From UHGV virus genome UHGV-1368455: a stretch of 64,000 nt of DNA; one strand, 5' to 3'. The DNA is from a virus. The notes below the pieces were generated by a model. It was not told the DNA's origin and ran no database searches. It worked only from the letters and a program-made list of their open reading frames with translations. Below, one piece after another: positions 7,697-63,022 of the stretch. The first letter of the stretch is position 1. Every line of letters begins with the position of its first letter. Made by a program: the position numbers and the translations under genes.

Positions 7697-7742
7697 TAGT
7701 GATTATCGTATTACATTATTTATTAATTAAACTATTGTTATT

Positions 7743-8426
7743 ATGAGCAGTATTGCACAACTTGTTTCAGAGATTGCTCATTCCGTAAAGCAACCTGATA
7801 GTGTTCCTGTTCGTAGAGCTATTAAACTTGGTATAATTCATGCTCGAAACGAAGTCATAAGACGTAGTTTTGCTAATCATAATTATACTGACAAAGTTCT
7901 ACAACAACGTTTTAAACTTACTCTTATTGATGTTCCTGACGGTGACCTTTATGGTTCTGATAAAGTTGTTACATCTCAAGTTAAAAGAACTATTAATAAA
8001 GTTCCTCGTCCTGTAAGACTTACTAATAATCTTCCTTTTCATTCTGTTCGTACTGCTGGTGTACGAAATCCTATTGAAATAGCTTTTGTTAAAGAAGCTA
8101 CTGCTAAATATTATAATGCTCTACCTGGGTTTTGTCCTAATGTTAGTTATGATTATATTAACGAATATATCTATGTGAACTCCCCCGTAGAGGGACAACT
8201 TGCTTCAATTAGTGCTATTATTGTTGAATCTGTATTTGAATATCCTCATATTATAGAAACTGAAACTGTTGAAGGTAAACTTGATATAGATACTATTGAT
8301 GATAATGATGAATTTTTACTACCTGAAGATATGATTACTACTGTTAAACAACTTATTCTTTCTACTTGGAATCCAGATATTATTCGTGATACTAATGAAG
8401 TTCCTACTCCTAATATAGTACAATAA
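7743..8426 (+). CDS. hypothetical virion/tail protein
   Basis: 227 aa; contains in-frame motif copy (SPVEGQ). Confidence 0.55.
   Translation: MSSIAQLVSEIAHSVKQPDSVPVRRAIKLGIIHARNEVIRRSFANHNYTDKVLQQRFKLTLIDVPDGDLYGSDKVVTSQVKRTINKVPRPVRLTNNLPFHSVRTAGVRNPIEIAFVKEATAKYYNALPGFCPNVSYDYINEYIYVNSPVEGQLASISAIIVESVFEYPHIIETETVEGKLDIDTIDDNDEFLLPEDMITTVKQLILSTWNPDIIRDTNEVPTPNIVQ
8178..8197 (+). repeat. GC-rich dispersed motif copy 1 (AACTCCCCCGTAGAGGGACA)
   Basis: Inside CDS 7743..8426, translated SPVEGQ. Confidence 0.9.
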
Positions 8427-9355: not shown

Positions 9356-10169
9356 GCGTATAATTGCTAAAATAGACAATGATTTCAATCCTGATAATAG
9401 TGATTGGATTCCTCGTGTTGGAGCATGGTGTATTGACGCAATGTCTATGCTCGATTGTCTTTGTACTAAACGTACTAAGAAAACTATTACTGTTAAAAAC
9501 AGAATAGCTTATGTTGGTTGTCCTATTAATAATATGAATATCAAAATATATGATTCTAATGGTTGTGAAATAGAAGAAGCTAATAATAAGAAATGCGGAT
9601 GTAATAATCCCTCTACGGGGGAGGTTGAACAATCTACAACGACAAAAATTAGTACGGCAGTTAGTCGTTATGAAGCCAATGCGCCTATTACAAAAGCTCC
9701 TGATTATTTATTAGCTGAAACTCTTAATGATAAAGAATGGCCTGGACGTTATAGAATTAATGAATTTAATTATGTTAATGGACAACAAAATATTAATAAA
9801 AATTATGTTATTACTGGAAATGATAAAATAGAACTTAATTTTGATACTAAATGTATTACTCTCGAATATGATACTATTGAAACTGCTCAAACTCAATTTG
9901 GTTGCGAACTTCCAGTTATTCCTAACAATGGAATACTTATTGAAGCTCTAACTTATTATTGTATGTATAAGATGTTATGTAGAGGTTATAAACATCCTGT
10001 ATTTAATCTTGCAGCAAGTCAATATGGTACTAATCCTTATTATATATGGACACAACTTAAAGATGAAGCTAAACGTTCTGTTATAGCTAATAGAGTTGAT
10101 ACTGATGAAGATATTAGTAAAATGTTTCGTAGTGCTTTTTATATTGATACTTTTGACCCTCGTAGATAA
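9327..10169 (+). CDS. hypothetical virion/tail protein (Cys-rich N-terminus)
   Basis: ORF-track start 9318 is TTG; first ATG at 9327. Contains in-frame motif copy (NPSTGEVEQ). Confidence 0.5.
   Translation: MQNKTVTNIERIIAKIDNDFNPDNSDWIPRVGAWCIDAMSMLDCLCTKRTKKTITVKNRIAYVGCPINNMNIKIYDSNGCEIEEANNKKCGCNNPSTGEVEQSTTTKISTAVSRYEANAPITKAPDYLLAETLNDKEWPGRYRINEFNYVNGQQNINKNYVITGNDKIELNFDTKCITLEYDTIETAQTQFGCELPVIPNNGILIEALTYYCMYKMLCRGYKHPVFNLAASQYGTNPYYIWTQLKDEAKRSVIANRVDTDEDISKMFRSAFYIDTFDPRR
9606..9630 (-). repeat. motif copy 2, reverse orientation (AATCCCTCTACGGGGGAGGTTGAAC)
   Basis: Inside CDS 9327..10169, translated NPSTGEVEQ; 23 of 25 nt identical to copy 5. Confidence 0.9.
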
Positions 10170-13100
10170 TGGCACAAATAATTCCCAAACTTAATCTTAA
10201 CAAACATCCTTCAGAAGTACTTAATGGAAGTTTGATAGATGCTACTAATATTATTGTTAGTAACGACAATGCTGTTATACAAACTGAGCCTCAACTTGAT
10301 ACATCTGACATTAATAATCAACTAATAAATCTTATTGGTAGTCGTTCTTATTCTATTAAATATTGTATTAATTGTAATAAAGAATTAATTATATTTGTAT
10401 TATTTAATGATGATGCTGACAATATATCTTTATATAGATATAATGAAGATTATAATGAAATTAAATATGTTACTAAAACAGATTATCATGGAGGTGAATT
10501 ACTTGGAACTTTTACTTATAATTTTAATAATCTTATAATTGCTTTTAGCGAATACTTTGAAGATGATAGTAAGAACGTTCCATTAAAAACTATTAATCTT
10601 GGCAAGTGGAACGAAACTATAAATGATAATGATGTTAATCAATTAAATAATTCTAAAATACATCCTTGTAATCCTGAAGTTAAAATTCCTAATATTACTA
10701 CTTCTTATGTTAAAGGTAATTGTTATAAAGGATGGTATTTTATTTTTATTCGTTATAAAATTGATAGTAATACTTATACTCAATGGTTTAATACTAATGA
10801 ATATATTTTTATAGATACTTTTACTAATACTAATTTATATAAAAGTTATATCAGTTCTGATGTTAAAAATATTGGTAATAAGAAAAATACTTGGAACTCT
10901 TTTTATAATTATATATCTGATGATACTGATATAAGTTTAATTACATTACAATGTGATGTAACAAATAGGGATACTAAATATAAATATTATCAATTAGGTT
11001 TTGTTATTAATAGAAAAGATACAACTAAATGTTATCGAAGTGAAGATATTGATATTAATAATAGTACTTTTATATTTAATAATAATTTAGTTGTAGAAGA
11101 AGGTTTAATCAATATGATTAATACCTATACTAATTATTATAATGTTAAATCATTAACTGCTGTTGGAAATAGATTATTTATTGGAAACTATAAAGAAAAT
11201 AATTTTGAAAAAGATATTATTAATTCACTTAAAAATATTAATTTATCAGTTTCTTTTATTCCTTCTGAAAATAATACCGATACTCAAGATATAGAAACAA
11301 GAGCAGAACAAGAATTAACTTGTACTGTATATTGTACTAACAGAACAAGTAATAATCAAGTTAATCTTATTGCTAAACTTTGGAATAATCAACAAGATGG
11401 AATGATTTATTATACTGGTAGTCAAATGCCTCTTGTTAATAAAAATCATGACGATGTAGATATACATACTATGGGTCAATGTAAAATTAAATATCATTAT
11501 CAAGGTAAAGATGTTACTGAAATTGTTGATGCTAAAAATATTATAGTTGCTCCATTTGAAAATAAAGTTATTAACGGACAATCTAATCAAGGACGTATAT
11601 TTATTCTTAAAGATGGAGAACTTATAGAACATGAGCCAGATGGTCCAGATATAAATACTGTTAGTTTATTAAGTTTCTATACTAATAAAGTTTTTGGAGA
11701 AATAGCTATGTCTTATACTAATTGTGATTTTACTCATACAGAAGTTGGTGTTGATGGTGGAGAGATAGAATCTTCTACTAATATACTTAATACATCAGGT
11801 TTAAGACCTAATAATCCATATAACTTTTTTATTCATTTTATTGATAAATATGGATTATATACTGATGGTTTTAATATAAATAATTTTAATCTTAATACTT
11901 CTGAAAATAATTTTATTAATAATATAGGAGATAAAATTATTATTACTCCTAATGATGATAATTCATATATTGCTAAATTTGTTCTTGATAATATTCCTGA
12001 ACAATATGTTGGATGGTTTATTTCTTATGAAAAAATTGAACGTTATATTAAATATACAGGATTTATTGGAGGTAATGGTGAAATACAAGAAGATAGTGAA
12101 GATGCGAGTATTGAAATAAATAAAACTTCTTATATAGCTGAAGATATTAAAAGAGATTCTACTAATCCTTGGCAAGGAAAACGTGGCAATAATCAAAATT
12201 TTATTAGCAATGAACTTAATTTTCTTGATAGTATTATTACAGATTTTGATATTGCAAGATTTTATAATACTACTGTTACAAGAACAAAAGGAAATAATAA
12301 TATAGCAAAACTTACCTATAATAAAACTGATAATGCATATATAGATATTCCAATTATTAGTAAACATTTATTAGTTGCTGATAGTTATAATAATATTGGA
12401 GGTGAAACTAAATTTCAATTAGAGTTAAATGGTGTCGCTGAAGTTATTACTTATTCTTATATAGTTGAACTTATTAAAAGTGATAAAACTAATATTTATA
12501 ATAATATTAATAAAACATTAATTCCTTGTTCTGAAATTAAATATGAAACTGGAGAAATAAATGTAAATACTAAAGATTCTTTTCATAGTGAAATTCATGT
12601 TTACGACTACAAAGAAAGTACTTATTGGAATGATACTCTTAAATATTTTCAAAGTTCTGGTGATTCAAGACCTGTTATTCATCCTGTTTTTTGTAAAGTT
12701 CAACAAGCGTTTGTAGATATTCCTTGGGAAAGTTTACAAATTAATAATAAACCTGAAATTATATTTTTTCCTAATAAAGGACTTAATACTACTGATGAAT
12801 ATAAAAAATCATTTATAATCGGAACTATTATTGAAGCAAAAAATACTGTTGATTTATTTCAACAGAAAAATAATACTGTTTGGAATGCTTGTCCAAAAAC
12901 TATTACTAATTATTATGAAAGTAAAAACTACGCAAAAGATTATCCTAAAACTATTCGTCGTAGTAATATTATTCAAGATGAATCTCGTAATAATGCTTGG
13001 AGGCAATTTAAACTTGAACAATATAAAAATATTACTGAAAATAAAGGCGATGTAACCAAACTTATTGCTATCGGTTATTATTTTATTGTTCACTGTCAGC

Positions 13101-14053
13101 ATAGTATGTTCTTATTTAATGGTACTGATAGTATTGAAGCTAAAGAAAATAATATTCAACTTTCTTCTGTTGATTTTTGGGATACTCAATATAAAGAAAT
13201 TGTTACAAGCGATTTAGGTTATGCCGGACTGCAAAAAGAATACTCTGGTATAGTTGGTAGCTTTGGTTATATATTTTATGATTCTGATAGGCAGCGTTTT
13301 TATCGTTATGATAATGGTCAAGTAGCTTATATTGACGACGATATAAATAATTATATTCGTAAACTTAAAGGATATAATGTTCATCTGGTTGATGATAAAC
13401 GTCGTTATAGAATACTTATTAATTTTAATAAAAATGGTGAAAACGATATAGTTATAAGTTATAACTATCATACTAATACTTTTGTTTCTCGACATACGTA
13501 TAATTATGTTAGAGGATATAGTACTAAAGAAAATACTTATATAATTGGTAAGTATGATGATAATATTGGTAGAACTAATATCAATATTTATAAAGAAGCA
13601 TTATATTACAACTCTGTTGTTAATGTAATGCTTAATGCTAATTATATAAGTATGAAATATATTGAATACATACTTTATAAAGTTGCCAAAGTTACTCCCG
13701 TTGAACTTAACAATTACTCCCCCGTAGAGGGATTGAATGACCTTTATGCTGCTGATGGAGTTCGTGTATATAGTACTCATTGTGATACTGGTGTACTTGA
13801 TACTACTTTCAAAGATGCAACTATCGAAGTTAATAAAGTTATGAATTATGCTAAACCTTATTGGAGATTTGGTAATTGGCATCTTAATGCTCTTCGTAAT
13901 AGACTTGCTGAATATCTACAAAATAAATATGGGGATGATGAATGTAGTCGTATATTTGGTAATTGGTTTGTAGTTGAATTTCATATTAATTCTAACGAGC
14001 AAGTTGAGTTAGAAACTCTCGATGCAGTTTATAATAGTGCTGAAAATAAATGA
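10169..14053 (+). CDS. large tail/baseplate-like structural protein (1294 aa)
   Basis: Long Asn/Tyr-rich ORF in structural block; TAATG and ATGA couplings at both ends; contains motif copy (SPVEG). Confidence 0.65.
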   Translation: MAQIIPKLNLNKHPSEVLNGSLIDATNIIVSNDNAVIQTEPQLDTSDINNQLINLIGSRSYSIKYCINCNKELIIFVLFNDDADNISLYRYNEDYNEIKYVTKTDYHGGELLGTFTYNFNNLIIAFSEYFEDDSKNVPLKTINLGKWNETINDNDVNQLNNSKIHPCNPEVKIPNITTSYVKGNCYKGWYFIFIRYKIDSNTYTQWFNTNEYIFIDTFTNTNLYKSYISSDVKNIGNKKNTWNSFYNYISDDTDISLITLQCDVTNRDTKYKYYQLGFVINRKDTTKCYRSEDIDINNSTFIFNNNLVVEEGLINMINTYTNYYNVKSLTAVGNRLFIGNYKENNFEKDIINSLKNINLSVSFIPSENNTDTQDIETRAEQELTCTVYCTNRTSNNQVNLIAKLWNNQQDGMIYYTGSQMPLVNKNHDDVDIHTMGQCKIKYHYQGKDVTEIVDAKNIIVAPFENKVINGQSNQGRIFILKDGELIEHEPDGPDINTVSLLSFYTNKVFGEIAMSYTNCDFTHTEVGVDGGEIESSTNILNTSGLRPNNPYNFFIHFIDKYGLYTDGFNINNFNLNTSENNFINNIGDKIIITPNDDNSYIAKFVLDNIPEQYVGWFISYEKIERYIKYTGFIGGNGEIQEDSEDASIEINKTSYIAEDIKRDSTNPWQGKRGNNQNFISNELNFLDSIITDFDIARFYNTTVTRTKGNNNIAKLTYNKTDNAYIDIPIISKHLLVADSYNNIGGETKFQLELNGVAEVITYSYIVELIKSDKTNIYNNINKTLIPCSEIKYETGEINVNTKDSFHSEIHVYDYKESTYWNDTLKYFQSSGDSRPVIHPVFCKVQQAFVDIPWESLQINNKPEIIFFPNKGLNTTDEYKKSFIIGTIIEAKNTVDLFQQKNNTVWNACPKTITNYYESKNYAKDYPKTIRRSNIIQDESRNNAWRQFKLEQYKNITENKGDVTKLIAIGYYFIVHCQHSMFLFNGTDSIEAKENNIQLSSVDFWDTQYKEIVTSDLGYAGLQKEYSGIVGSFGYIFYDSDRQRFYRYDNGQVAYIDDDINNYIRKLKGYNVHLVDDKRRYRILINFNKNGENDIVISYNYHTNTFVSRHTYNYVRGYSTKENTYIIGKYDDNIGRTNINIYKEALYYNSVVNVMLNANYISMKYIEYILYKVAKVTPVELNNYSPVEGLNDLYAADGVRVYSTHCDTGVLDTTFKDATIEVNKVMNYAKPYWRFGNWHLNALRNRLAEYLQNKYGDDECSRIFGNWFVVEFHINSNEQVELETLDAVYNSAENK
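13716..13733 (+). repeat. motif copy 3 (ACTCCCCCGTAGAGGGAT); partial half-copy TTACTCCCG at 13693..13701
   Basis: Inside CDS 10169..14053, translated YSPVEGL. Confidence 0.9.
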
Positions 14054-14634
14054 AACGCAAGAAAGTTAAAAGAGACAAAGCCTTTTTAGGTGCAATCATT
14101 GGAGCTGTTGCTGGTCTTGCAGGCTCTGCGATTGGTGGTTCGATTAGTAATAATAAAGCTAAAGCTCAACTTCGTGCTCAACAACGAGCACAGAATAAAC
14201 AAGATACTCTCGCTATGGCTCAAAATCTTAGTGCAAGCTATGGTAATCAAGAGTATGTAGATGAATTTAATAAACGTGTAACTTTTAAGAATGGTGGTAA
14301 AATGAAAAAACGTAAATGTAGTGCTGGTACTAAAGTTTCTATTGCAAAAAGATTTGCTTGTGGAGGACGAAAGAAAGCCGAATGGGGAGCAAGCGATACT
14401 TCTGCTCTTATTAGCGGTCTTAGTAGAGGTCTTGGTAATATTGTTTCTGCTTCTTTGTCTGGCAATACCGGTATAGTAAAACAAGGAGATATGTTTGCAG
14501 GTACTCCTAAAGAACATCTTGAAAAACCTGATTATATTACTACTCCTGCTAATAATGTTTCTGATAATGACTATTTGTACCGTGTTGGTGGATGCAAACG
14601 CCGTAAGGCTAAATGTGGTACTAAAAAGAGCTAA
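14050..14634 (+). CDS. basic Gly/Lys-rich virion-internal (DNA-associated/cargo-like) protein
   Basis: 194 aa, MKRKKVKRDK..., GG/KK low complexity. Confidence 0.5.
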   Translation: MKRKKVKRDKAFLGAIIGAVAGLAGSAIGGSISNNKAKAQLRAQQRAQNKQDTLAMAQNLSASYGNQEYVDEFNKRVTFKNGGKMKKRKCSAGTKVSIAKRFACGGRKKAEWGASDTSALISGLSRGLGNIVSASLSGNTGIVKQGDMFAGTPKEHLEKPDYITTPANNVSDNDYLYRVGGCKRRKAKCGTKKS

Positions 14635-14656
14635 TATCAGCTCCATATTCCTATAT

Positions 14657-14664
14657 TAATTTTG
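14657..14664 (+). promoter_or_regulatory. possible -7 promoter element TAATTTTG upstream of 14749
   Basis: Matches TAnnTTTG; no clear -33. Confidence 0.2.
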
Positions 14665-14748
14665 CCCCGATTAATTTATCCAGCCATGATAATTTAACAT
14701 GGCACAGGGCATGAGAATGTTTCATAATAAATAATATTTTTTTTATTT

Positions 14749-16365
14749 ATGACTAAAGTTAAAAGACCTAATATAGTGCGTGGAGGAATTGCTGTTCCTC
14801 TTGGACGTAACTATTATTATATGCGAGGTAGAAAACATGAACAAGGTGGTATTGATATTGGTAAAAATCCTCGTACAGGACTTGAAGTTGAAGACGGTGA
14901 AGTTATGCACGTTGGTTCTAAAGATATTAAAATATTTAGTTCTCTTCCTTTTCTTAATGGTAAATCCCCAGCTCAAAGAGTTATGAGTGGTGAAAATTCT
15001 AATGCTGTTTTTAATGCTCAGGAACGTTTTAAGAAAAGAAATAAGATTAATGATGATGGTACTAAAAAGAAACGTATGGGAGGATTAAATAGAAGTAAAG
15101 ATTATGGTTCAAAATCTAAACCTTATCCTAATGTTAAGAAAAGCGATTTTGCTGGAGGTGGCAGAAGTTATCCTATTCCTACTAAAGCCGACGCTCGTGA
15201 CGCATTAAGACTTGCTGGACTACATCATAGACCTGATGTTAAAGCTAAAGTTTATCGTAAATATCCTGAACTTAGAAAGAAAGCTAAAGTTGGTGGTTTA
15301 TATTCTGTTACAGTTAATGGAGAAACAAAATTATATCAATATCCCTCTACGGGCAAGATAAAGAAGTCTAAAACGACTAAATCGGCTGGACGTTCTAAAT
15401 TTGCTGGAGGAGGTGATACTAAAGATAAAGATAAAGAAAAAGATAAAGTAAAAATTATAACTGCTAAAACTTTTCCTGAAGTTAATCCATTTACTTTTAC
15501 TGAAAATCCTCCTGCTACTACTCCTACCGAAAATGTTGAAGCAACTATTAATGCTAATGTTCCTCGTGCTTTTGCAAAACGTAATAGAGATATAACTGAC
15601 CCAGAAAAACTTAATATTGCTTATCAAAAAGCTTCAGGTACTTATCCTAATTGGTTTCAACGTACTTATAGAAATATAAGAAATTATGTTAATGAACACC
15701 CCGATACTGTCAATGAAGGTATTGGACTTGCAAGTAATGTTGTTTCTTCTCTTATAGGTAATAGTATAAATAGACGAGTGCTCAATAGTCTTCGTTATTC
15801 TCCTGCTCCTATTCCTCAACGTGCTGCAAAACTTAAAACTCGAATCAATATTAATCCTCAACTTGATAGAATGAGAGAAAGTCTTGCTGCTTATGAACGA
15901 GCTATCGATACAAATACTGGTAGTTCTCAAGTTGCTCTGGCTCGCAAACAGAGAGCAAGGTTAGCAAATGTTCTTTCTACTAATGAACTTTATGGTAATA
16001 AAGAAAATACTGAGACTTCTCTTATTAATCAAGATAGACTTAATCAACAAGAAGTTGCTAATAGAAATATTGATGCTTATAATACTTGGGCACAAGGTAA
16101 AGCTGATTTTGAAAATAGTATAAGACAACAAAAAGCTGAAAATAATATTGCTTTGATGAATAATCTTAATGCTGGAGTTCAAAATGTTATTAATAATATT
16201 CAGCAACGTAGAACTGAAGGAAGAAATATTAAAGCAATGCTTCTTGCTTATCCTGATTTACCTGCTGAACAACTTCTTGCTTCTGGTCTGATTACACAGA
16301 ACGAATACGATACTTATCGTAAAGGTTATCCTCTTAAACGTAAAAAGAATAATAATAACGAATAA
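14749..16365 (+). CDS. basic Lys-rich virion-internal (cargo-like) protein
   Basis: 538 aa with KKRNK, GGG, KDKDKEKDK stretches; contains weaker motif copy (PSTGK). Confidence 0.55.
   Translation: MTKVKRPNIVRGGIAVPLGRNYYYMRGRKHEQGGIDIGKNPRTGLEVEDGEVMHVGSKDIKIFSSLPFLNGKSPAQRVMSGENSNAVFNAQERFKKRNKINDDGTKKKRMGGLNRSKDYGSKSKPYPNVKKSDFAGGGRSYPIPTKADARDALRLAGLHHRPDVKAKVYRKYPELRKKAKVGGLYSVTVNGETKLYQYPSTGKIKKSKTTKSAGRSKFAGGGDTKDKDKEKDKVKIITAKTFPEVNPFTFTENPPATTPTENVEATINANVPRAFAKRNRDITDPEKLNIAYQKASGTYPNWFQRTYRNIRNYVNEHPDTVNEGIGLASNVVSSLIGNSINRRVLNSLRYSPAPIPQRAAKLKTRININPQLDRMRESLAAYERAIDTNTGSSQVALARKQRARLANVLSTNELYGNKENTETSLINQDRLNQQEVANRNIDAYNTWAQGKADFENSIRQQKAENNIALMNNLNAGVQNVINNIQQRRTEGRNIKAMLLAYPDLPAEQLLASGLITQNEYDTYRKGYPLKRKKNNNNE
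15341..15354 (-). repeat. motif copy 4, weaker (ATCCCTCTACGGGC)
   Basis: Inside CDS 14749..16365, translated YPSTGK. Confidence 0.6.
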
Positions 16366-16371
16366 ATTACT

Positions 16372-19059
16372 ATGGCTCAAGTACAATATATAACTCGTGA
16401 TTTTATACCTCGCGTAGACTTAACTACTCTTGGTAATACATTTAATACTCTTGAACAAGGTCATCAAGCTGCCGTACAGGCAGCTTCTGACCTTAAAGCT
16501 ACTATTGCTAAATTGCCGATGGATGCTCAAGAAGATGGTTTTAAAGAACAACTTGTTAATGAAATAAATCAAACTATTGATGATAATACTCTTTATGGTA
16601 ATTCTTATGGGGCTTTAGACAATCTTGTTACACAAATTGGAGATATTCAATCTGATGGTAGAATTATAGGTAGACTTCGTAATCATCAAGCTAAAGTTGA
16701 ATATGATGCTAAAGTAGATGCTATGGCTATTCCTGATGGAATGAAGCAAATGTATAAAGAAGAAAATCCTTATTATTATGAAGACGGAGAAGTTGATGCT
16801 AATACTGGACGTGTTCTTCCGGGTGAGATGTGGGAAGCTAAAACTAATCCTGTTACTACTGTTCCAGAAAATCAGATTCAAGCATATGCTTTACAAATAG
16901 CTGCTAAAGATGCTGGTAGTGGAGAAACTGTTAGTTTTCTTGACGTCAATGGCAATCCTACTACTGACCCAAATAAATCTGAAGACGGTTCTATGTACAA
17001 AAAAGTTGGAACTCGATGGGAACGTCTTAGTGAAGATAAAATTAGAGAAGCATATAGAGTAGCTATTAATAGTATTCCAGGAGCTAAAGATAGTCTCGAC
17101 CAAGATTATCGTTATGCTACTTGGCAATATGATAAACTTGTTAAAGATGCTGAAGCTAAAGGCGGGAATATCGCTCCTTATGTAAAAGGATATACTGATA
17201 AAAATGGTAATATTTATACAAGAGACCAATGGCTTAATAATAAAATAAATAATTTTGCTGATGTTGCTGCATATAATCATGTTTATAGTTCAGTAGATTT
17301 TGGTACTGCTTTACAAAATAGAAAAGCAAGACAATCTGCTGCATCTGCATCTGGAAGTGGAGGGCTTATAGGAGCTTTACAAGGAAATAATAGACAACTT
17401 GGAAATATTATTAGTGGTACTGAAGAGACTGAAAGCAATGCTTTTGCTGGAGTTACTAAAGCTAAAAATGATGCAAATAGAACTGGTCTTAATATAGCTA
17501 AAACTTTTGGAGGTAATCTTTTTAGAGAAGCTGATAGTATTAGCGATATTATTAGAACTGTTCGTCAAAGAGACCCATCTGTTAAAGGTCCAGGAGGTAC
17601 AGCTAATTATATTATTAGTCATTATGGCAAAAATATGACTCCACTTCAAAAGTCTCAACTTAGAAATGCTCTTGTTGGTTATGTTCAAGCTAACAAACAA
17701 TATAACCAAATGATTAAAAGTGCTGGTGGTAATGCTGATGGACTTAGATTTAGTGCCAATGCTGCTAATAATGAATATACTAATGACAATAAATATGGTA
17801 GAGCTGTTATTAGAGAATTAAATAATATATTTTCTAATAATAATAGTGTAGATTATGAAATAGGTTCTGATGTATTTTCAGCTCTTAAACATTTATATAA
17901 AACTGATGACCTTAGAAAAGTAGGTCTTAATTATTCTCGTAATGAAGATGGAAATTATATTGTTACTTTTACTCCTCAAAATAGAAATTTAATGCCTAAA
18001 TTTGACAGTCTTATAGCACAAGCTGATAGTCAAGTTGATGGTAGTTTTAGTGGATGGTTTAAAAAAGCATTTACGGGCAGAGCCGCTTCCGGTAATTATG
18101 TAGTTCATTTTCATAATAAGAATGGAAGAACTAATACAAGAAATATTAGTGGAGGAGGAGCTTTAGCCAATGCTTATGAAAATGGTAGTAATGCTGCTTC
18201 TAAAGCAGAAAGTAAAGCTGGAGTTGCTAAAGGAACTCGTAGTTTTAGTACTGGTAATTATGCAAGTTTTGGTGCTGCTTATGCTGCTATGCATCCAGAA
18301 ATAGCTCAACAAACAGGTGAAACTCTTCAACAGTTTATAGATAGACAAAATGAACAAGTTGATTTAGGTTTTGCTCAAGGTAATTTTGATTCTGGCCAAA
18401 TACAGTATCTTGATGAATCTGGTAGAGCTTTTATTGATATTTCTAAAAATCAAGATGCTAAAACTCTTATACAAAATATGTATGCTGATGATACTCAGCG
18501 TAAAAAAATAAAGAGAGCTATTAAAATTCCAACAGGTACTGAAGCTGGAGGAACACAAGGATATGTTCTTTCATTTACTGTACCTAAAGGATTTGGCAAT
18601 AAACATTTTAAAGAAGGACAAAAAGTAAATATAATTGTTAGTGGTGTTAGTGAAGAAGAAATTAATTTTAATCCTTCTATGAATCCATCTGTTCTTGCTT
18701 CTAATGCTATTGTTACAAGTAGAGCTACTGGAGGTCCTGTTGAAATTCAAGGTTATGACGCCAATCTTGGTAATACTGATTTAGTTCCTACTAAAAATGG
18801 AAAATATGCATCTACTTTTATGGGTAATGCAAAGAATATGACTCCTGAAGAAGCTGAATATTATATTACTCTTATGTACACTCTTCAACAATTCAAAGGA
18901 CAACTTGAAAGTGGAGCATATAATCTTGCTGACCCTAATCAAGTAACTCTCGTTAATAATAAATTTGACAATCTTGTAAATGAATTATCAAAAGTTACAG
19001 ATACAAGTAGAAATAGTGTTGCTACTGCTGTCTTTAATATGATTAAAAATGGAGAATGA
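16372..19059 (+). CDS. large virion protein (895 aa), likely ejected/cargo or tail component
   Basis: Precedes the two giant ORFs; 6-nt gap from upstream gene. Confidence 0.6.
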   Translation: MAQVQYITRDFIPRVDLTTLGNTFNTLEQGHQAAVQAASDLKATIAKLPMDAQEDGFKEQLVNEINQTIDDNTLYGNSYGALDNLVTQIGDIQSDGRIIGRLRNHQAKVEYDAKVDAMAIPDGMKQMYKEENPYYYEDGEVDANTGRVLPGEMWEAKTNPVTTVPENQIQAYALQIAAKDAGSGETVSFLDVNGNPTTDPNKSEDGSMYKKVGTRWERLSEDKIREAYRVAINSIPGAKDSLDQDYRYATWQYDKLVKDAEAKGGNIAPYVKGYTDKNGNIYTRDQWLNNKINNFADVAAYNHVYSSVDFGTALQNRKARQSAASASGSGGLIGALQGNNRQLGNIISGTEETESNAFAGVTKAKNDANRTGLNIAKTFGGNLFREADSISDIIRTVRQRDPSVKGPGGTANYIISHYGKNMTPLQKSQLRNALVGYVQANKQYNQMIKSAGGNADGLRFSANAANNEYTNDNKYGRAVIRELNNIFSNNNSVDYEIGSDVFSALKHLYKTDDLRKVGLNYSRNEDGNYIVTFTPQNRNLMPKFDSLIAQADSQVDGSFSGWFKKAFTGRAASGNYVVHFHNKNGRTNTRNISGGGALANAYENGSNAASKAESKAGVAKGTRSFSTGNYASFGAAYAAMHPEIAQQTGETLQQFIDRQNEQVDLGFAQGNFDSGQIQYLDESGRAFIDISKNQDAKTLIQNMYADDTQRKKIKRAIKIPTGTEAGGTQGYVLSFTVPKGFGNKHFKEGQKVNIIVSGVSEEEINFNPSMNPSVLASNAIVTSRATGGPVEIQGYDANLGNTDLVPTKNGKYASTFMGNAKNMTPEEAEYYITLMYTLQQFKGQLESGAYNLADPNQVTLVNNKFDNLVNELSKVTDTSRNSVATAVFNMIKNGE

Positions 19060-19062
19060 GAT

Positions 19063-22000
19063 ATGCCTAATAATGTAATTACAGGAAATTCTTTCGTAGA
19101 TAAAATACGTCCTTATATTCCTAATCCCGAATATAATCCTAAAACCAAGAAAGGTCGTGTTCAACCTCCTATTCTTGTTGATAGTTCTGCTCCAGCTATT
19201 AATGATAACTTTATGTCAAGAACTATGAATAGTGTTAATAGACTTACTTTTACTGGAAGAGAACTTGGTTTTACTAATGAAGAAATAGAGAGTGATGCCG
19301 ATTTAGGCATTACTCTTTCTCCGTATAATACTGTAGATGAACTTAATAAAGCAAGAGCAGATAGTCAATCTGCTCTTTCTCAGTTTGGTAACTTTCTTGC
19401 TCAAGCTGGTTTAGGTGAAGTTCTTGTTGGTACTATGGAAGGATTTGGTAATATCTTTGATGGAGCCAAACAATTTGTTACTGGAGACAATTATGAATCT
19501 TCTGCATGGACTCGTTTTTGGGAAGATATACATAATGATATTAAAGATAAATTTAAGATTTATCGTGAGAACCCTAACGCTGATTGGGACTTGTCTGACT
19601 TTGGTTGGTGGATGGATAATGCTGTCAGTGTTGCTACTACTGCTTCACTTATGATACCTGCTGCTGGTTGGGCAAGAGGTATTTCTATGCTTGGTCGTAT
19701 AGGTAAAATAGGAAAAGGAATTAATGCTGTAACTCGTTGGGCAAGTAAAGGTCTTAGTAATTGGAGCAAAGCCGCAAGAACTGGTAATAAGTATGCTCAA
19801 ATAAGAGCTGCAGCTTCTATTAATAAAACAATTAATAATGCCGCTGAAATAACTGGTACTGCTCTTCTTAGTAGAACAGGTGAAAACTATATGGAAGGTC
19901 GTCAAGTTTATGATGAAGTTTATACTAATAGTAAAGAGAATCTTGATAATATGCCAGATACTGAATTTCAGAAGTTTCTTGCTCGTCATCCTGAATTTAG
20001 AAACCAATCTAAAGATGACATTGCCAAAGAAATAGCTCGTCAATCTGCTAACGAAACTTTTTATAATGATTATTGGATGTTACTTATGGATATTCCTCAG
20101 TTCAAAGCTCTTGGTAGTTTATGGGGAAAACCTATGCAACGTGCTTCTAAAGCGTCTGAACGTATTGCTGCTGAAAATGTTAGACGTACTCTCGCTGGTA
20201 AAAAAGCTGAAGACCTTATAAAAAATAATCTTCTTAATAGAACAAAAGAAGGTTTCAAATATGCTTTCAAACATCCTACTAAAAGTGCTGTCATTACTCA
20301 ACTTGGTGAAGGCTTTGAAGAAATGTATCAAGGTATTCAAAGCGAAAAAGGAATGGAAGTTGCTACTAAATATTTTGACCCATCTTTTACTCCTCGTTCT
20401 CTTACTTCTTATTTTACTGACGGCAGTATATGGGAACAAGGATTTTGGGGTTGGATTGGTGGTATGGCTTTTACTCCTGCCGGACAAGCAATTCAAAAAG
20501 GCTCTCATGCTATTAAAGGTTTATATAATAAAAAACACATGACTGCCGAAGAATATGAACAATGGCAACGTGCTAATCGTAATATAGGAGCTGAAAAAAT
20601 TAATAATGTTACTATTACTGCAAAAGAATTTATTGACAATATGAATAAAATTAACGAAGGAAAAAATCCATTTAATTTTGTTGTCAATAAAGATACTGGT
20701 ACTAAGATTATTAAAGATGGTCAATTAGTTGAAGAAACTATTGACGATGAACAAAAAGAATTACTGAAACAAGAAGCTATTGATAAATTTGTAACAGATA
20801 CAGCTTTCGATGCTATTGATAGTGGTGTTTATCCACTTATGCAAGAAATACTTAATAGTTCTGAATTTGACCAATATCTTACTAAAAATGGTGCTACAGT
20901 TAACGGCAATGATAAAGCTATAAGCAAAGAAATTTCTAATCGTATGGAAGCTATTTCTGATATGTATCAGAACGAACTTCGTAACGTCAATAATCTTACC
21001 GATAAAGCAAATCCATTTGCAACCATTGCTGCTGCTCGTAGTTTAGTTAGAACTAAATTACAATTAGAAGATTATGAAAATCAGTTAGGTAATATCGCTG
21101 CTCGAATGGAAGAAGCTAACGATAACCAAACTGATTTTAATCCTTATATTGAACGTAGAAAATATAATTATGCTAAACGTCAATTAGATAATATTGAAAG
21201 ACAAGAACAAATTATTGCTACTCAATATGCCAATAAAGAAATTGGTGCATCTGCTCGTGACCAATATATGAAAGAACTTGATGCACAAAGAAAAGTATGG
21301 CAAGATTATATTATGAATAATACTTCTAAAGGTGCGATAGAAGAAACTATGAGAACTATTCAGGAAGATGAGAGTATTCCTGATAATATGAAAAAAGATT
21401 TTTATACTATTATGAGAAACTTGGATAAACAAATTGCTTCTGCTACTGAAGTGTCTATTCCAAGTGATACTATTAAAGAACTAATAGATGAAGAAATAAC
21501 TATTGAATCAAGACGTAATTATACGCAAGCTCAACTGCCATTAGATGAAGCTGATTATAAAAATGTTTATAATGAGTTTGCAATGGCTATGGACCAAATG
21601 TATCGTAAACGTATTGATGGAGATATTGATACTGTTAAAAATTATCTTAATAATGCTAAAGATTTAGATGAGGCTATTAATAATGTTCTATCTGAAAATA
21701 CAGGTATTAGTAAAGTCGATAACGCTCTTAAATCTATTCGTTATGGTTATTTTAATCAAAACAAAGATATGAGAGGTCAAATTACTAATAATCTTCAAAT
21801 GGAACTTATTATTGAAGAAGCTCGTAAAAATCGTAAAAAAGCTGAAAATTTACAAGCTGAAGCTGAACAAAGTGGTACTGTTCTTCCTGAAAGCGAAGCT
21901 GGTCAACAACAAGAGCAAGAAGAAGCTGCTATTAATCAACAAGAAACACAAGATGAGAATGGTAATCCCTCTACGGGGGAGGTTGAGCAAACAACAACAG

Positions 22001-25807: not shown

Positions 25808-28800
25808 GTGGGGCTAATAACAGCTTTCACAATCCATAATATTTTTTCAAAACAACAAATTCAAACTATTGTTCATTATAGTGATGAATCTTATAACGGA
25901 GATAGTAATATGAATTGTACAATTAATGACCTTAATTTATCATTTGATAAAGATAATCGGCTTCGTACCACAATTGGACGTGTGGCTGGTTGGAGTGTTG
26001 ATAAGGCTTATGTCCTTGCAAGTTTTCTTCAAGATGAAAGTTTTAAGAAGTATCTTTCTAAAATGCTTACAGATAAAGATATTATAGGAGGTGCTGCTAT
26101 TGACTTGAAGAATATAACCGATAACGATTATATAAATATTAATCAGAATAAACTTGGTAGTCTGCTTAATGTTTATTATATTGACCATTATCATAGTGTA
26201 AATAATAGTAAAACTAATAAAGCTCTTGGTAGACTCAATGGCTTTAGTAGTGGTACAGCTAAAACTGTGGGCTTAAATTATACAGCCGACCGTATTATTG
26301 ATAAATACTATGACGAATTTGGTAAAGCTAAACCTAAAAAATCACAAGAAATAATTGCTGAAGTTATTAATGATATTGAGCATGAACTTTATAAGCAAGT
26401 TAATTTATTTGCAAATAATGTTATTAGTAGCGATAAATATTCTAAAGCAGCTCGTGATTATGCTCAAAAATTTATAGATATTATTAAACGTATTGAAGAA
26501 AATAATAATAAAATAAAAGAAACTACTATTTTCGCCAATGCTAATAAAAATCAACTTCGTCAATATAATGGTAAAAAAGTTACTGAAGAAGAAAAATCTA
26601 TAATTAAACGACTTACCGATATTGATAAACAATATAAAGAAGAACTCGCTTCGCTTGGTAAAGATAATGCTCGCGCCGCGTTAGACCGTTATGTTATTGC
26701 ACAAAACTTAGTTAATCTTTATGCAAACAATGTTGATGGTGCTTTGAATAAACGTCTTCGTAACTTTGCTAATCTTGTTGCTCAAATGAAAGGAGATACA
26801 AATGGTTGGTTCTTTCAAGTTATGAATACTAAACGTATGACTTCTATTGTTAAAGAATTTAATAATATTGGTGACATAGAAGAATATATTGAACAACAAG
26901 ACGAAAATAATGACAATATTATTGATAAATATAATGGTCAAGATGTAGACCAAACTACTAAATCTTGGGAAGATAGTCTTTATAAATCTTTTAATTCTGC
27001 CATTAGCGGAAAGATGAGAATTATACTTTCTCGTGTTCCTAAACTTTCTTCTCCTTTTAATCCTACTGCTGAAATACAATCGCTTGATACAGAAAATGAA
27101 CTTGGAGTTAAAACCTATATGGATGCTCAATTTATTACTGTTCAAATGTTTAGCTTTGGTGATTTCAGTGATATTGAATCTATGGTTAGAAGCATTGAAC
27201 GTAGAGCCAATACTGTTGAAGAACTTTATGGTATTGGAATGCTTGTTAATCAAATGAAACAAGATAAAGTTTTTGCTAATTATATGTATGCCAATTTCGC
27301 TAAACCTCTTGTTAATAAAACAATGTGTGTTATTAGCGATTTAACTAAAGAAAGTGGTATTACTTTTAATTATAGTAATGCTAATGCTTTCTATTCTACT
27401 AAAATGGCATTTGATATGATGAATAAACTTCGTGCTTCTTATAATACTCAATATGATATTAACGATTATAAAACTATTCAAGCCCTTGGTAATAAACTTC
27501 GCAATCCTAAACTACCAATAGAATTTGATGATACTGAAATTATTTACAATACTTTACTTAAATATTTTCCTAATATTAAACGTGAAGTTTATGATAATTT
27601 TTTACGTGGAATTAAAGATGATAAACGCAATGCTTTAATTAATTTTACTCAAAATCTTATAGCTATTATTAATGGCGCTGGTGCTCTTAAAACTAAAATT
27701 AACACTGCTATTGAAGAATCTAATAGAAAATATAATAATGCTAAGAAAAAGTTTAATCAAGATTATAATGCCTATTTGGAAGCTGGAGATACTCAAGCTG
27801 TTAAGCAAATGAAGTATCCAACTTATCAAGGAGTTGATTATACTGAATATGATTTAGACCCTAATACTCTTAAAGCTGTTATTAGACTTGCAGAAAATCT
27901 TTCAGATTATTCTGCTTCTAAAGCTCGTCTTAATACTGCTAACGCTGAGGGCAATACTGCTTCTGATGTAACTAAAAACTGTTATATAACACGTTTCTTT
28001 GAACAAATTAATGCTGGTACAGAAGAAGATTCTAATGCTGGCCTTCATGCTTTATTAGATTATATAACACAAGGTACTGAAAATGGTAAAGAAAATCAAT
28101 ATTCTAATAATCCTCTTTTCTTTGGTGTTAAAGATGAAAATGGAAGAGTAATTATACCTGGCATGTTTACTCGTGTCGGAGATATATTTAATATTAATAA
28201 AAACGCTAAAGAAATACTTAATTATAGTCTATTTGACGGTACAAAGAATACTCAAAGCGGAAATGGTAGTGGATATGCTTCTATGTCTAAACTTGATTTC
28301 TTTGTTACTCAATATATAGCTTATGCTAATAGCGTTGGAGATATTAATGAGAATGGTATAAATAAGAAAATAGGTAATCTTGACAGTTCTGTTTATGCTA
28401 TGCGTATTGGCAGTGATGCACCTAAAATTTATATGATACGCGCTCCTCGTTATAATTATCGCCAACTTCAATATGCTTTCTATAATCATCTTATGGATGA
28501 ACTTAATATGTATGTTAATAGTCTTAATAAGATATTTAGAAAGAATAATGCTGGAGAATATAAACTTATTACTACTACTAATGGTCTTTATGGTAGAGCA
28601 TTCTTTGATGAAGGTGCTGCTGATAATCTTCGTAAAGACGGAAAGAAAGATATGTCTAAAGCATTTGTTGAAGAAAATAATGGTAGACTTCAACTTGCTG
28701 GTAAAATGTTTAAGTTTCTACGTCTATTTGATGCTAATGGACATAGTGCAGCAACAGATATTGAAACTGTACTATCTCTCTACGGGGGAGTTGATGCGAA

Positions 28801-31800
28801 TGCAACGTCGTTATTTATCAAAGACGGCAGAACTAAACTTAAACTTAATAAAGATTATATTAATAGTGAAAATGGTTTTATTAAAGAATTAACTGATGAA
28901 CAAGGTACTCGTTTTGTACTTGATTTAGGTGCTACTCAAAAGAAAGCTCTTTTGAACATTGTCGATAATTGGATGAAAGATGTTCTTCAAGAATCTACTG
29001 CGAGAACAAGTGATTTCGTTCAAGCTATGGAACATAATAATATTCAATATACTCAACCTATGATTCAAAGTTTTATTCTTAACGCTTTGAATATGAATAT
29101 GAATTATGATGATATGTTTGAAGGAGATTTTAAGTTTTATAATAATGCTCGTGATTTCCTTAAACGTACAAAAGAAAGTCAAGCTGGAGGAGATGGTTGT
29201 AGCGGTTATAGATTAACGGAACTCCCCCGTAGAGGGATAACTGAGAATACTTATTTTGGCGAGCCTGAAATTATAAATGTTAAGACTGCTAAAAATACAG
29301 AAGCTGGGACTTATATTGTTCCTACTTATGATAATGGTAGTATTGTTAACAAGCCTATGACTGCTCGTAATGGTTTTAGAGCTGTTACTATTCATAATAC
29401 TATTAAACCTTCTGATGTTGCTATGGACTTGCAAGAAACTCTTGAAGAGGAATTTATTTCTCAAGGTATGAGTAAAGAGGACGCTCATGCACGTTCAGTT
29501 AAAATCGCTGGAGGTTATTTTGCTCAAACAAAAGTTAATGATGCGCAGTCATTTATTACTCTTGAAGAATTTATACGTCGTAAATATGCTGATGGTACTA
29601 TTGGCAATTATCAAGATTTAATTGCTCAACTTCTTGACCCGAATGTTAAAGCTGAAGATATTGATGTAGACGCTGTTAATGCTCGTATTCAAGTTCAAAA
29701 GAACTTCTATTTTGATAAGCAATTCGACCCTTATACTGGAACTTTTGTTCCTCGTCAAATTAAAAACGCTGAATTTGTACTTATTCCTAAATTGCTTCCA
29801 CAAGATAGCGATTTAATAAAAGTTTATGAGTGGATGCGTGCTAATGATATTGGACAGCTTAATACAGCTGAAACTGATAAAGCCGCTAAGAAAAATATAT
29901 TTACTATATGGAGTGAAGATACAGGTGAATTTATTGACCCTCGAAATAATAAAAAATTTAGAGAAGATTATATTCAAAATTATTATTATCAATATCTTTA
30001 TAAACAACAAGATGTTCCTCAACACATGATTAATGAGGAAAATAAACTTGGAGCACAAATTCAAAAGAAGATTATTGATAATGTTTCTACTGCATCTAAA
30101 CAAGTTCAAGATTGGGCTAATGAATATCAAGAAGCTCTTGTTGAAAATATTAGAGAAGATTATATTAGATTTCTTGATAGAATGGGATGGGAATATGATT
30201 CTGAATCTGGTCATATTGTCAACAGCGAATATGCTACAAAAGATGCAAATGGCAATCCTCTTCCTGCCGAAGTTATTAAATCGAATAGAGAAACATTAAA
30301 TCTTACTGATTTTTATACTCGTGCTCGTGAAGAAGCCGCTCGTTTAGGTATGGATAGTAATTTTATAGAATATCTTATTCCCAACGAATTTGGTGTTACT
30401 ACTATGCCTAACTTAATGAATAATGTTGCTTCTAAACTTGAAAGTGTAGCACAAGCTTTATTTAATAGAACTGTTACTCGTCAAACTATGCCTGGATGGC
30501 ATGCTGCTCAAGTTACTGATGTTGGTTATAGTCGTCGTCTTCTTAAATTTGACCCTAAAACTGGCGTTATGGAAGTTTATCTTCCTCGTTGGAGTAATCT
30601 TCTTCCTAAACCTAAAAATGCTGAAGAAGAAAAGAAACTTCTTGAACAAATAGCTAAAGAAGGACTTGATATACATCTCGGTTATCGTATTCCTACTGAA
30701 GGTAAACAATCTATATCTGTTCTTAGAGTAGTAGGTTTTACTAACGATGCGCTTGGTTCTACAATAATTGTTCCAGAAGAATGGGTTACTCAAACTGGTT
30801 CTGACTTTGACGTTGATAGTATATATGGTATTAGTTATGAAATATATGCTAAGAAAGATAAGAAAGGTAACATAACTGTTTATAAAATACCTTGTGAAGA
30901 AGATAAAGTAGATAACGACAATCTATATATTAACTATGTAAACTCTCGTCTTGAAGATAAAGTTAAACGTAGCGATATAGGTGAAGAAATTGAATCTCGT
31001 ATTAAAGAACTTCGCGATAGTCTTAAAGCTCAAATTGGAGATAAACTTAATTCTAATAACGCTGCATTTGTTGCAGTTGATACTCAACGAAATGAATTAT
31101 TTAATAAACTTCCTGCTTGGGCACGTGGTATTATAGTTAATGAGCAAACAAAAGCTAAACGTGTTGCTAAGAAAGATAAAGTAAGTGTTGATTTGCGTGG
31201 TGAATATCAAGTGATTAATAAATTGTTTGATGAACAACTTACTAAACGTAACTTAGATGATGCTACTGCCGATATTATTAAACAATATATGGACTATCAA
31301 ACTTCGTTGATTAATATAATGAACGAACAAGATGGTATTACTACTTTTGATAAAGACGAATATATTAGTTCTAAAAAAGATATAATTGCTACTGCTGTTG
31401 AGAATGCTCGAAAAGAACAAGTTAAACTTTGCGAAAGTAAAGCTAATGAAGTCGGGTTAATGAGTTATGACGACTTTATTAAACAACCTCTTATTAAACG
31501 TCTTTCTCGTAAAGCTCGCAATAATTATATTCTTGATAGAATGATTAATATTATGAACGATAGAAGTTCTCGTGAAGAACAGTATGGTCGTTCACAATTT
31601 GAAGGTATTGCTGGTGAAGAAACTTCTGCTAATGATATTATTAATAAAATAAGTGGTCAATCTAAACGTAGTTATAGTCCTTATAATCCTCTTGACCAAC
31701 TCGATTACTTTGAAGATGCAATGGGGGGCGCTCGTCTTAAAGCTCTTTCTGTAAATTGGGATACATTTGTTAGTAAATGTAATAGAACTCATCCAATTCT

Positions 31801-40570: not shown

Positions 40571-40594
40571 ATCCCTATACGGGGGAGTTCGACG
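40571..40594 (-). repeat. motif copy 10, reverse orientation, intergenic (ATCCCTATACGGGGGAGTTCGACG)
   Basis: Left arm of inverted pair in gap 40546..40704. Confidence 0.85.
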
Positions 40595-40655: not shown

Positions 40656-40678
40656 GGGCTACCCCGTAGAGGGATAAA
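40656..40678 (+). repeat. motif copy 11, intergenic (GGGCTACCCCGTAGAGGGATAAA)
   Basis: Right arm of inverted pair; 61-bp interior. Confidence 0.9.
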
Positions 40679-62841: not shown

Positions 62842-62920
62842 CTAAATCAGTATCAAAGGCTTCACTATGAATAGCAATACCATCATCTTCATAAATGTTA
62901 TTCATACGAGATAGAATTAA

Positions 62921-62940
62921 ATACCCCGTAGAGAAGATAA
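62921..62940 (+). repeat. motif copy 17, variant, intergenic (ATACCCCGTAGAGAAGATAA)
   Basis: Left arm of second inverted pair in gap 62842..63023. Confidence 0.75.
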
Positions 62941-63000: not shown

Positions 63001-63022
63001 AATCCCTCTACGGGGTAGATTT
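63001..63022 (-). repeat. motif copy 18, reverse orientation, intergenic (AATCCCTCTACGGGGTAGATTT)
   Basis: Right arm of second inverted pair; 60-bp interior; ends 1 nt before stop of 63024..63632. Confidence 0.9.

Follow-up and report, generated by a model that had tools for sequence, protein, structure and literature searches.

A short DNA motif spelled out in unrelated genes of a crAss-like phage is probably a conserved cis-acting signal of the Intestiviridae

Introduction

Why does one short DNA sequence recur inside gene after gene of a single phage genome, translated in different frames into different peptides? The question is raised by a 64,000-nt stretch of the UHGV virus genome UHGV-1368455 (here called the window, with its first letter as position 1), a crAss-like phage segment of 30% GC in which the sequence CTCTACGGGG is dispersed over both strands. 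Genes of the window point in the + direction over 1-40 kb and in the - direction over 40-64 kb. Their order is that of Diorhovirus cr3_1 and of the prototype crAssphage (p-crAss), both members of the Intestiviridae (Crudevirinae), and the nearest phages in GenBank match the window only in short stretches, at ~77% identity.

An earlier note, made from the letters of the window, had proposed that the sequence spreads at the DNA level, by transposition, templated insertion or gene conversion, with selection retaining only frame-compatible copies, which add a Pro/Gly/Ser-rich loop to the protein; its fallback was that the DNA site has a function and is permitted only where the residues it encodes form a flexible loop. 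From a comparison of the window with cr3_1, p-crAss, crAss002 and Rudgehvirus, all of which carry it, we consider that the motif is probably a cis-acting DNA signal, held family-wide in the Intestiviridae by purifying selection on the DNA itself, and not a mobile insertion.

A short, sharply conserved and over-represented motif

Fifteen exact occurrences of CTCTACGGGG are found in the 64 kb, where 0.01 is expected, and allowing up to one mismatch brings the number to 18 (the 15 plus three more) against an expectation of 0.27. Alignment of the copies gives the consensus (t)tTCC-CTCTACGGGG-(G/T)AG-TT, a word of 16-20 bases. As a 15-mer, the motif has a bimodal mismatch spectrum: 17 copies have two mismatches or fewer, none has three, three have four (0.8 expected), and at five mismatches the count is at chance level. 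Fourteen of the 18 copies lie in 11 long open reading frames (ORFs), and the other four are intergenic, arranged as two inverted pairs (40575/40662 and 62924/63006).

Relatives of the window were found by an exact 15-mer search of IMG/VR, where the 15-mer is multi-copy only in contigs of 30% GC; of these, the ones with an alignment to the window are ~70% identical to it. The copies in the window, with the peptides that they encode and their counterparts elsewhere (L-numbers denote loci of the relatives), are:

8179..8195, - strand: exact core, within ORF 7743-8426 and translated as NSPVEGQ; private to the window lineage, with AATATTCCAGAAAATAGTAAA (NIPENSK) aligned there in relatives, without an indel
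9608..9624, + strand: in ORF 9318-10169 (tail tubular-like), NPSTGEV; orthologous in IMG/VR relatives, cr3_1 (14360) and p-crAss (58727)
13716..13732, - strand: in ORF 10169-14053 (stabilization-protein-like), YSPVEGL; same DNA in relatives, within protein flanks 37-42% identical; cr3_1 copy at 19021
15342..15358, + strand: one mismatch (CTCTACGGGC), in ORF 14749-16365, YPSTGK; exact motif in relatives; p-crAss copy at 51406
21966..21982, + strand: in the 2237-aa ORF, NPSTGEV; aligned with PPSTGGV in relative L013
25397..25413, - strand: in the 2237-aa ORF near its C-terminus, NSPVEGQ; kept in L013, L055 and L058, with flanks 47-55% identical
28775..28791, + strand: in the giant 4722-aa ORF (RNA polymerase-like), LSLYGGV; kept in seven relatives, with flanks 32-48% identical
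29221..29237, - strand: in the giant ORF, ELPRRGI; lineage-specific, with no indel relative to L062 and L058; relatives have a - strand copy of their own ~28 codons off in another frame, and L064 has YSPVEGK further downstream
35086..35102, - strand: in the giant ORF, GLPRRGT; the next base is T, not G; part-conserved (LPRR, FPRR) in L037 and L062
40572..40588, + strand: one mismatch (CTATACGGGG), intergenic, left arm of an inverted pair
40658..40674, - strand: intergenic, right arm of the same pair (partner 40572..40588)
47396..47412, - strand: in ORF 47209-47982 (deoxynucleoside monophosphate (dNMP) kinase-like), PLYGGV; kept in five relatives; cr3_1 copy at 49828
49824..49840, + strand: in the ligase ORF 48867-50081, NYPVEEE; cr3_1 copy at 52316; relatives have LPVEG, encoded by GCCCGTAGAGGGA; the p-crAss copy at 18157, in the p-crAss ligase gene, is paired with it by gene position only, the automatic map not confirming the pair
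51465..51481, - strand: in the primase ORF 51074-52372, LSLYGGV; orthologous in cr3_1 (53853), p-crAss (16627), Rudgehvirus (65984), L108 and L109
56248..56264, + strand: one mismatch (CTCTACGGGA), in the 458-aa ORF 55357-56733 (ATPase-like), TSPVEEH; orthologous in cr3_1 (58633), p-crAss (11765) and L109
57863..57879, - strand: in PolB (56736-59090), DYPSTGE, within a variable linker
62920..62936, - strand: intergenic, arm of an inverted pair between ORFs 62377-62841 and 63024-63632
63003..63019, + strand: intergenic, partner arm of 62920..62936

These readings agree with every peptide that the earlier note had listed: PSTG four times (ORFs 9318-10169 and 14749-16365, the 2237-aa ORF and PolB), (S/Y)PVE five times (ORFs 7743-8426 and 10169-14053, the 2237-aa ORF, the ligase and the 458-aa ORF), LYGG three times (giant ORF, dNMP kinase and primase) and LPRRG twice (giant ORF). 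The copies are in frame within genes, as it had said, but these number 11 ORFs instead of at least 12 genes, and four of the six frames are used instead of three. It had also pointed out that the frame producing TAG is never used; this is true of all the copies, but is uninformative, being forced on any in-gene copy under the standard code. A fifth open frame, reading PLRG, is empty in the window and is used by a relative at the PolB site; by our own estimate, one empty frame is unremarkable for 14 copies over five open frames.

Copies are orthologous, and new ones replace existing sequence

In protein-guided alignments, the identical DNA motif is present in relatives at 12 of the 14 genic sites of the window, within flanks that are only 30-55% identical. 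At least seven sites are common to the window and cr3_1 and/or p-crAss; the shared sites are those in the PolB, 458-aa ATPase-like, primase, ligase, gp47-like, tail tubular and stabilization proteins. Mapping of the relatives' copies onto the window by blastn produced just 10 alignments that spanned a site, because the copies sit in variable DNA.

The two copies private to the window lineage, at 8183 and 29225, are substitutions of existing sequence that leave its length unchanged (NIPENSK to NSPVEGQ, and EKFNPTLHD to ELPRRGITE, respectively). Near 29225 a second lineage has a - strand copy of its own, 28 codons (~90 nt) off and in a different frame, and neither lineage has the copy of the other; we read this neighbourhood as turnover of the site around a maintained location, with two independent gains. 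Older copies lie within indel-rich stretches, and their origin is not readable from the alignments.

These alignments bear directly on the model in which a tiny mobile or templated element spreads into coding DNA and selection keeps the frame-compatible, loop-adding copies. New copies do appear (8183 and 29225), flanks are homogenised within a genome, and the intergenic inverted doublets recall REPINs. Two pairs of copies also share extended sequence: those at 9611 and 21969 have a 24-nt exact run and 37 matches over 50 positions (the corresponding 25-mers, 9606-9630 and 21964-21988, agree at 24 of their 25 positions, against 23 in the earlier note), and those at 35090 and 40662 have CCCTCTACGGGGTAGCCCArCGTC in common. 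This extended identity is however marginal relative to the shared consensus (column-shuffle P ~0.03 for the 9611/21969 pair), and with support at that level we rejected recent copy-to-copy conversion. The new copies overwrite sequence without an indel, most copies are orthologous in relatives and across three genera, a population of decayed copies is absent from the mismatch spectrum, and random insertion would not give the even per-strand spacing, free of long gaps, that is described below. Most copies are solitary, and the inverted pairs, which invite comparison with miniature inverted-repeat transposable elements or REPINs, are two, both intergenic. No transposase domain or transposase-like protein was found among 16 window proteins scanned, which are a part of the genome's complement.

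Spread by transposition, insertion or conversion is thus hard to square with orthologous positions, private copies without an indel and the lack of a decay tail, and we hold the mobile-element model to be very improbable. The check for lineage-specific insertions that the earlier note had suggested, by alignment of orthologues, turned up two private copies and no indel at either. Its analogy with Rickettsia palindromic elements and organellar GC clusters breaks down over the same features (orthology, no indel, no decaying copies). Those elements, like REP/REPIN sequences, are indeed GC-rich repeats in an AT-rich genome, some in frame within genes and some in inverted doublets; but they are insertions of tens to ~150 bp that are non-orthologous and decaying, whereas the crAss motif has orthologous copies, a sharp core, regular spacing and no indel where a copy is new.

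The constraint lies on DNA, and proteins accommodate it

PSTG, SPVE, LYGG and PRRG occur 14 times in the proteins of the window, and 13 of these 14 occurrences are encoded by the motif. The codons involved are rare in the window (CCC makes up 4.8% of Pro codons, ACG 3.3% of Thr codons, GGG 2.7% of those for Gly and TCC 1.6% of those for Ser), and for the peptides as given this choice of codons has a probability of ~2e-5. At the PolB site, the relative P0076 (locus L108) has CTCTACGGGGGAG at the same linker position, read as S-P-L-R-G-S, which is the frame that the window leaves unused. Rare codons, peptides bound to the motif and the other frame at PolB uphold the earlier contention that the repeated unit is a DNA element and not a protein motif. 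Convergence at the protein level was rejected, given the rare codons, the near absence of the peptides elsewhere in the proteome and the same DNA in a second frame. Judging from the sequences compared, the peptides are likely to be by-products of a fixed DNA sequence that is spelled in any open frame.

Conservation in the flanks is below the mean of the protein for all 14 genic copies, and gap rates are raised at 10 of them. For PolB, an alignment of 120 homologues places the copy in a hypervariable, indel-rich linker after IPRELKSK; most of the homologues have xS-TG within this indel-rich stretch, and a few lineages are without the PolB copy. In an AlphaFold model of the window PolB (mean predicted local distance difference test score, pLDDT, 78.7), residues 405-408 are coil and the mean pLDDT over residues 401-410 is 56, so that mapping the copy onto a structure, another check suggested at the outset, puts it in coil of low confidence (pLDDT ~55-56 over residues 401-410). 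The low conservation and the gaps support the fallback of the earlier note, a site with a function at the DNA level that proteins accept only in flexible loops.

Spacing is even on each strand

Copies are split almost equally between the strands (+:-) in the window (8:10), cr3_1 (16:15), p-crAss (14:18), crAss002 (16:11) and Rudgehvirus (12:12). Relative to transcription, nine copies of the window are sense and nine antisense, and on this 9:9 orientation a promoter or terminator for the annotated genes was rejected.

Along each strand, copies follow one another at intervals of ~4-7 kb in these five Intestiviridae genomes, two of which are from cultured phages. The coefficient of variation (CV) of same-strand spacing, for which ~0.9 is expected, comes to 0.33 for the window, 0.43 for cr3_1 and 0.46 for p-crAss (P <= 5e-5 in all three); for crAss002 (0.38) and Rudgehvirus (0.43), none of 10,000 random placements was as even. 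Same-strand gaps reach at most 10-14 kb, where 21-24 kb would be expected (P <1e-4 to 0.03), and orientation alternates along the Intestiviridae genomes more than by chance (P 0.003-0.04). Much of the regularity is lost when strand is ignored.

The first 8.2 kb of the window (1-8178) have no motif copy on either strand, a length that exceeds the typical same-strand gap.

Versions of the motif follow phage lineage

The most over-represented 10-mers belong to the same motif family in the window, cr3_1, p-crAss and Rudgehvirus, and do so at lower fold in crAss002. Each genome has its own version. There are 31 copies in cr3_1, with consensus TTC-CTCTACGGGG-GAAC or GAGC, and 32 in p-crAss, with consensus TCCATC-CTC(T/C)ACGGGG-GGTCtAC or AGTATA. 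The cultured crAss002 has 27 copies of cTC-CTYTAYGGGG-GAA, and the cultured Rudgehvirus jaberico has 24 copies of a ~28-nt word, CTCCTYTAC(A/G)GGGGWGWTTACAnCAATA, with A replacing the first G of the G-run at ~20 of the 24 sites. At orthologous sites the flanks match the consensus of their own genus, so that the sites would have been rewritten in place together.

The ~28-nt word of Rudgehvirus jaberico is strongly conserved in its downstream part, TTACAnCAATA, of which the window has a faint echo in an ATC ~10 nt downstream; the signal may be bipartite.

No copy of the Intestiviridae motif is present in the first 100 kb of crAss001, of the Steigviridae. That same 100 kb has a dispersed 9-mer of its own, CTTCTGGAG, which occurs 27 times (chance ~0.4), alternates in orientation (P 0.003) and has a same-strand spacing CV of 0.61 (P 0.004). 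In DAC15, likewise of the Steigviridae, CTTCTGGTG occurs 24 times, and each 1842-bp terminal repeat contains an inverted pair of it; the motif of this family is of the type CTTCTGGWG. A link to headful versus fixed-end packaging was dropped, because crAss001 and DAC15, which are terminal-repeat phages, also carry a dispersed motif.

Phages of the same host species can use different words: Kehishuvirus tikkala has the Steigviridae type and Rudgehvirus jaberico the Intestiviridae type. In 596 Gb of bacterial genomes the 17-mer of the window is at chance, with 22 scattered single matches and no enrichment in Bacteroidales. These two observations, the second of them for the 17-mer, led us to reject a signal of the host genome. 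Instead, the signal tracks phage lineage, which indicates that its reader is probably encoded by the phage.

The primase of the window is distantly homologous to those of all other crAss-like phages, has no match in Pfam, NCBIfam or PDB, and belongs to a DnaG-like type that diverges between families. A special primase was considered as a correlate of the motif and set aside as non-discriminating, since primase homologues occur in all crAss-like phages.

Potential for secondary structure

The core can be written as (N)TCCTY|YAYR|GGGGA(N'), with a stem of 4-6 bp that includes an invariant T.G pair. The outer pair at -3/+13 covaries between genera (71% paired, versus 45% in the control). Folded as RNA, the forward strand gives -4.8 to -11.3 kcal/mol and the reverse strand -1.9 to -4.7 kcal/mol. 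Each of the two intergenic pairs closes a long imperfect palindrome whose interior is self-pairing: for 40575/40662 (window 40560-40685) the RNA fold is -48.5 kcal/mol (z -5.5), and for 62924/63006 (window 62915-63025) it is -41.8 kcal/mol (z -5.8). A simple terminator scan did not call the intergenic pairs of the window. As pointers to mechanism we take the hairpin, the covariation and the palindromes as leads only.

Similar inverted pairs, 43-120 bp apart, are found in relatives; the one in L039 (6935-7000) is followed by a T-run.

Discussion

What would a phage gain from such a signal? We propose that it requires about one copy per 4-7 kb on each strand and that, the genome being mostly coding, most copies are forced inside genes, where they would be placed at points at which the protein tolerates the peptide spelled by the fixed DNA. 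From the asymmetry of the signal and the independent coverage of each strand we infer that reading is polar: a phage enzyme would track along the DNA, most likely while this is unwound or single-stranded. The flanks, and in one genus a base of the core, shift in concert at orthologous sites, which suggests a reader that co-evolves with its sites.

The motif could be a preferred initiation (priming) site for the DnaG-like primase or the replisome on a lagging or displaced template, the role that we favour among specific mechanisms, though tentatively and at well under even odds. DnaG primases initiate at trinucleotides such as YTA and CTG; the invariant centre of the motif contains YTA and the Steigviridae motif contains CTG, a weak lead. 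Two more weak leads are the small hairpin potential with its -3/+13 covariation between genera, and the DnaG-like primase that all these phages encode. Single-strand initiation (ssi) and primase signals such as the G4 origin and ssiA/ssiB of RSF1010 are also strand-specific and read on single-stranded DNA, and ssiA/ssiB form an inverted pair on opposite strands, but these are hairpins of 40-140 nt that occur once or twice per replicon. Several points weigh against priming or against the evidence that leads to it. Known primase sites are 3 nt long, not 10-30 nt, and we know of no case of ~30 evenly spaced long priming signals. Equal coverage of the strands would need forks to cross every region in both directions, which we have to assume, and priming requires neither close inverted pairs nor long palindromes. 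The DNA hairpin is weak (-0.1 to -4.3 kcal/mol) with modest z-scores, and the -3/+13 covariation is mostly between genera and so confounded by phylogeny. Sites that are common to genomes make the per-genome P values for spacing non-independent, even though p-crAss, crAss002 and Rudgehvirus have few mutual sites; in DAC15 copies are only weakly regular in spacing (CV 0.67, P 0.046), without alternation of orientation. The scan of bacterial genomes was made with the 17-mer.

Unlikely too, though we rank it nearly level with priming, is a Chi-like signal. A helicase-nuclease of phage or host would enter at ends or breaks and degrade DNA until it met the motif in the correct polarity, whereupon it would be attenuated or switched to recombination, and even coverage of both strands would protect the genome, or mark it as self, at any break or permuted end. 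Equal and even coverage of both strands without large gaps is what two-sided end processing predicts. Chi is polar, G-rich and dispersed, with a usefulness that hangs on oriented coverage, as may hold for the crAss motif; the recognised strand of the crAss motif is G-rich, the Steigviridae CTTCTGGTG(G) resembles E. coli Chi GCTGGTGG (a resemblance only), and a density of about one copy per 6 kb per polarity is near that of E. coli Chi in the active orientation. The inverted pair of DAC15 lies ~0.5 kb from the ends in each terminal repeat, these phages encode a RecD/Dda-like SF1 helicase, and relatives are annotated with a PD-(D/E)XK exonuclease, RecT and Gp157. Packaging in crAss002 is reported to be headful with permuted ends (PMC8042965; PMC10136315), so that ends fall anywhere in the genome, as would suit this reading. 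Set against all this, the motif tracks the phage lineage and not the host, and its 17-mer is not enriched in bacteria, which makes host RecBCD or AddAB an unlikely reader. Chi sites known so far span 5-8 nt, are set by the host and are enriched in its chromosome, whereas the crAss motif has 10 near-invariant positions within 16-30 nt conserved in, and varying with, each genus. Its positional conservation across genera is stricter than individually weak sites of the Chi type predict, and to our knowledge no phage encodes a nuclease that reads Chi.

We give little credence to two further readings. In one, each motif is where a phage nickase would break a single strand of the virion DNA, as in T5, phiKMV, Pseudomonas tf and Rembedalsseter, whose clade-specific, short motifs occur in ~10-13 copies, in and outside genes, and are kept despite divergence. 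Asymmetric sites of 16-30 nt are typical of HNH or GIY-YIG enzymes of the nicking and homing type, and some relatives encode such enzymes; cr3_1, however, has no annotated HNH, GIY-YIG or homing endonuclease. Nick motifs are clustered and placed on a single strand, those of T5 included, while the crAss motif is spread evenly and ~1:1 between strands in every genome. Moreover, nicking at inverted pairs 28-90 bp apart (22901/22929 in p-crAss and 62924/63006 in the window) would produce fragile double-strand breaks. The nick motif WACTRTGAC, which occurs 13 times in ~45 kb, in and outside genes, and is conserved over 61 phages with little nucleotide similarity, has the same kind of footprint as the crAss motif; its function is given as unknown, and in Rembedalsseter all 13 of 13 nick motifs are on one strand (PMC11780129).

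The other reading, about as doubtful, is of duplex-binding sites for an architectural or regulatory protein, or of a promoter-like element from which the giant RNA polymerase would make antisense or primer transcripts. Each genome has ~25-32 asymmetric sites of 16-30 nt that are genus-specific at orthologous positions, and the promoters of T7, T3 and SP6 covary with their polymerases in like manner. The stoperators of Cluster A mycobacteriophages, ~24-36 asymmetric sites of ~13 bp with phage-specific variants that co-evolve with their binding protein, offer a parallel, but they are mostly intergenic, have a single orientation to transcription and serve the repressor of temperate phages; the crAss-like phages are not known to be temperate, and 14 of the 18 copies are intragenic. 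This placement and the 9:9 orientation misfit both promoters of annotated genes and polar blocks to transcription, and a duplex-binding protein leaves unexplained why regularity is greater per strand than with strand ignored. A virion RNA polymerase is encoded by all Crassvirales (PMC10136315), and stoperators resemble the crAss sites in number and length (PMC9283540).

A further likeness in distribution is that to the DNA uptake sequences (DUS/USS) of Neisseria and Pasteurellaceae, which have a short invariant core between less conserved flanks, an excess of hundred- to thousand-fold, copies on both strands, genic copies in tolerated frames and in less constrained parts of proteins, and intergenic inverted pairs that form hairpins. 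They differ in belonging to competent bacteria whose uptake machinery reads them, and in accumulating, as is thought, through uptake bias, whereas the carrier of the crAss motif is a virulent phage, with positions conserved between genera and even per-strand spacing.

More broadly, the Crassvirales might have a punctuation code, in which a family-specific asymmetric word (of the CCTCYACGGGG type in the Intestiviridae, CTTCTGGWG in the Steigviridae) recurs about every 6 kb on each strand, essential genes included, and is read by a co-evolving, strand-tracking enzyme, either to start synthesis or to tell phage from host DNA in nuclease action. We offer this as a conjecture with a fair way to go before it could be preferred to its negation. 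If true, it would add a level of genome organisation, so far unrecognised, to the phages that are most abundant in the human gut, with a DNA signal dictating local protein sequence in about a dozen genes.

No paper in the searchable library contains the motif as a literal string; the description of crAss002 and a 2023 review of the Crassvirales do not mention such a motif (PMC8042965; PMC10136315), and a literature search on crAss promoters, nicks and evenly spaced motifs brought up nothing on crAss-like phages in particular. The replication mode of these phages is stated to be unknown (PMC10136315), and an evenly spaced, strand-specific signal gives a concrete handle on replication, recombination or self-recognition. 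Since the motif occurs ~30 times in the prototype crAssphage and in the cultured crAss002 and Rudgehvirus jaberico, it is testable in cultured systems. It is also a clean example of a non-coding constraint that overrides protein sequence, which is relevant to annotation, to dN/dS analyses of crAssphage genes and to the design of recoded phages. The genus-specific variants are possible lineage markers, and could help to find the reader protein through co-variation.

Other features of the window

Some neighbouring features deserve mention: (i) The sole Rfam or ARAGORN match in the window is a tRNA-Gln gene (anticodon TTG) at 62134-62205 on the - strand; the Rfam scan of the window, giving this tRNA only, did not return the motif as a known RNA family. 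(ii) Where the + and - gene blocks converge, at 40005-40055, A-runs and T-runs flank a GC-rich inverted repeat, GGCTCGCGAAGCGG...CCACGAGCC, that looks like a bidirectional terminator and is unrelated to the motif. (iii) An antisense ORF of 318 aa lies within the giant gene at 35087-36043 on the - strand and ends at the TAG to which the copy at 35090 gives rise; this ORF is probably spurious. (iv) In the window the gene for the Dda/RecD-like helicase directly follows that for PolB (56736-60563), whereas in cr3_1, p-crAss and Rudgehvirus a uracil-DNA glycosylase gene lies between the two, the Rudgehvirus one carrying a copy of the motif.

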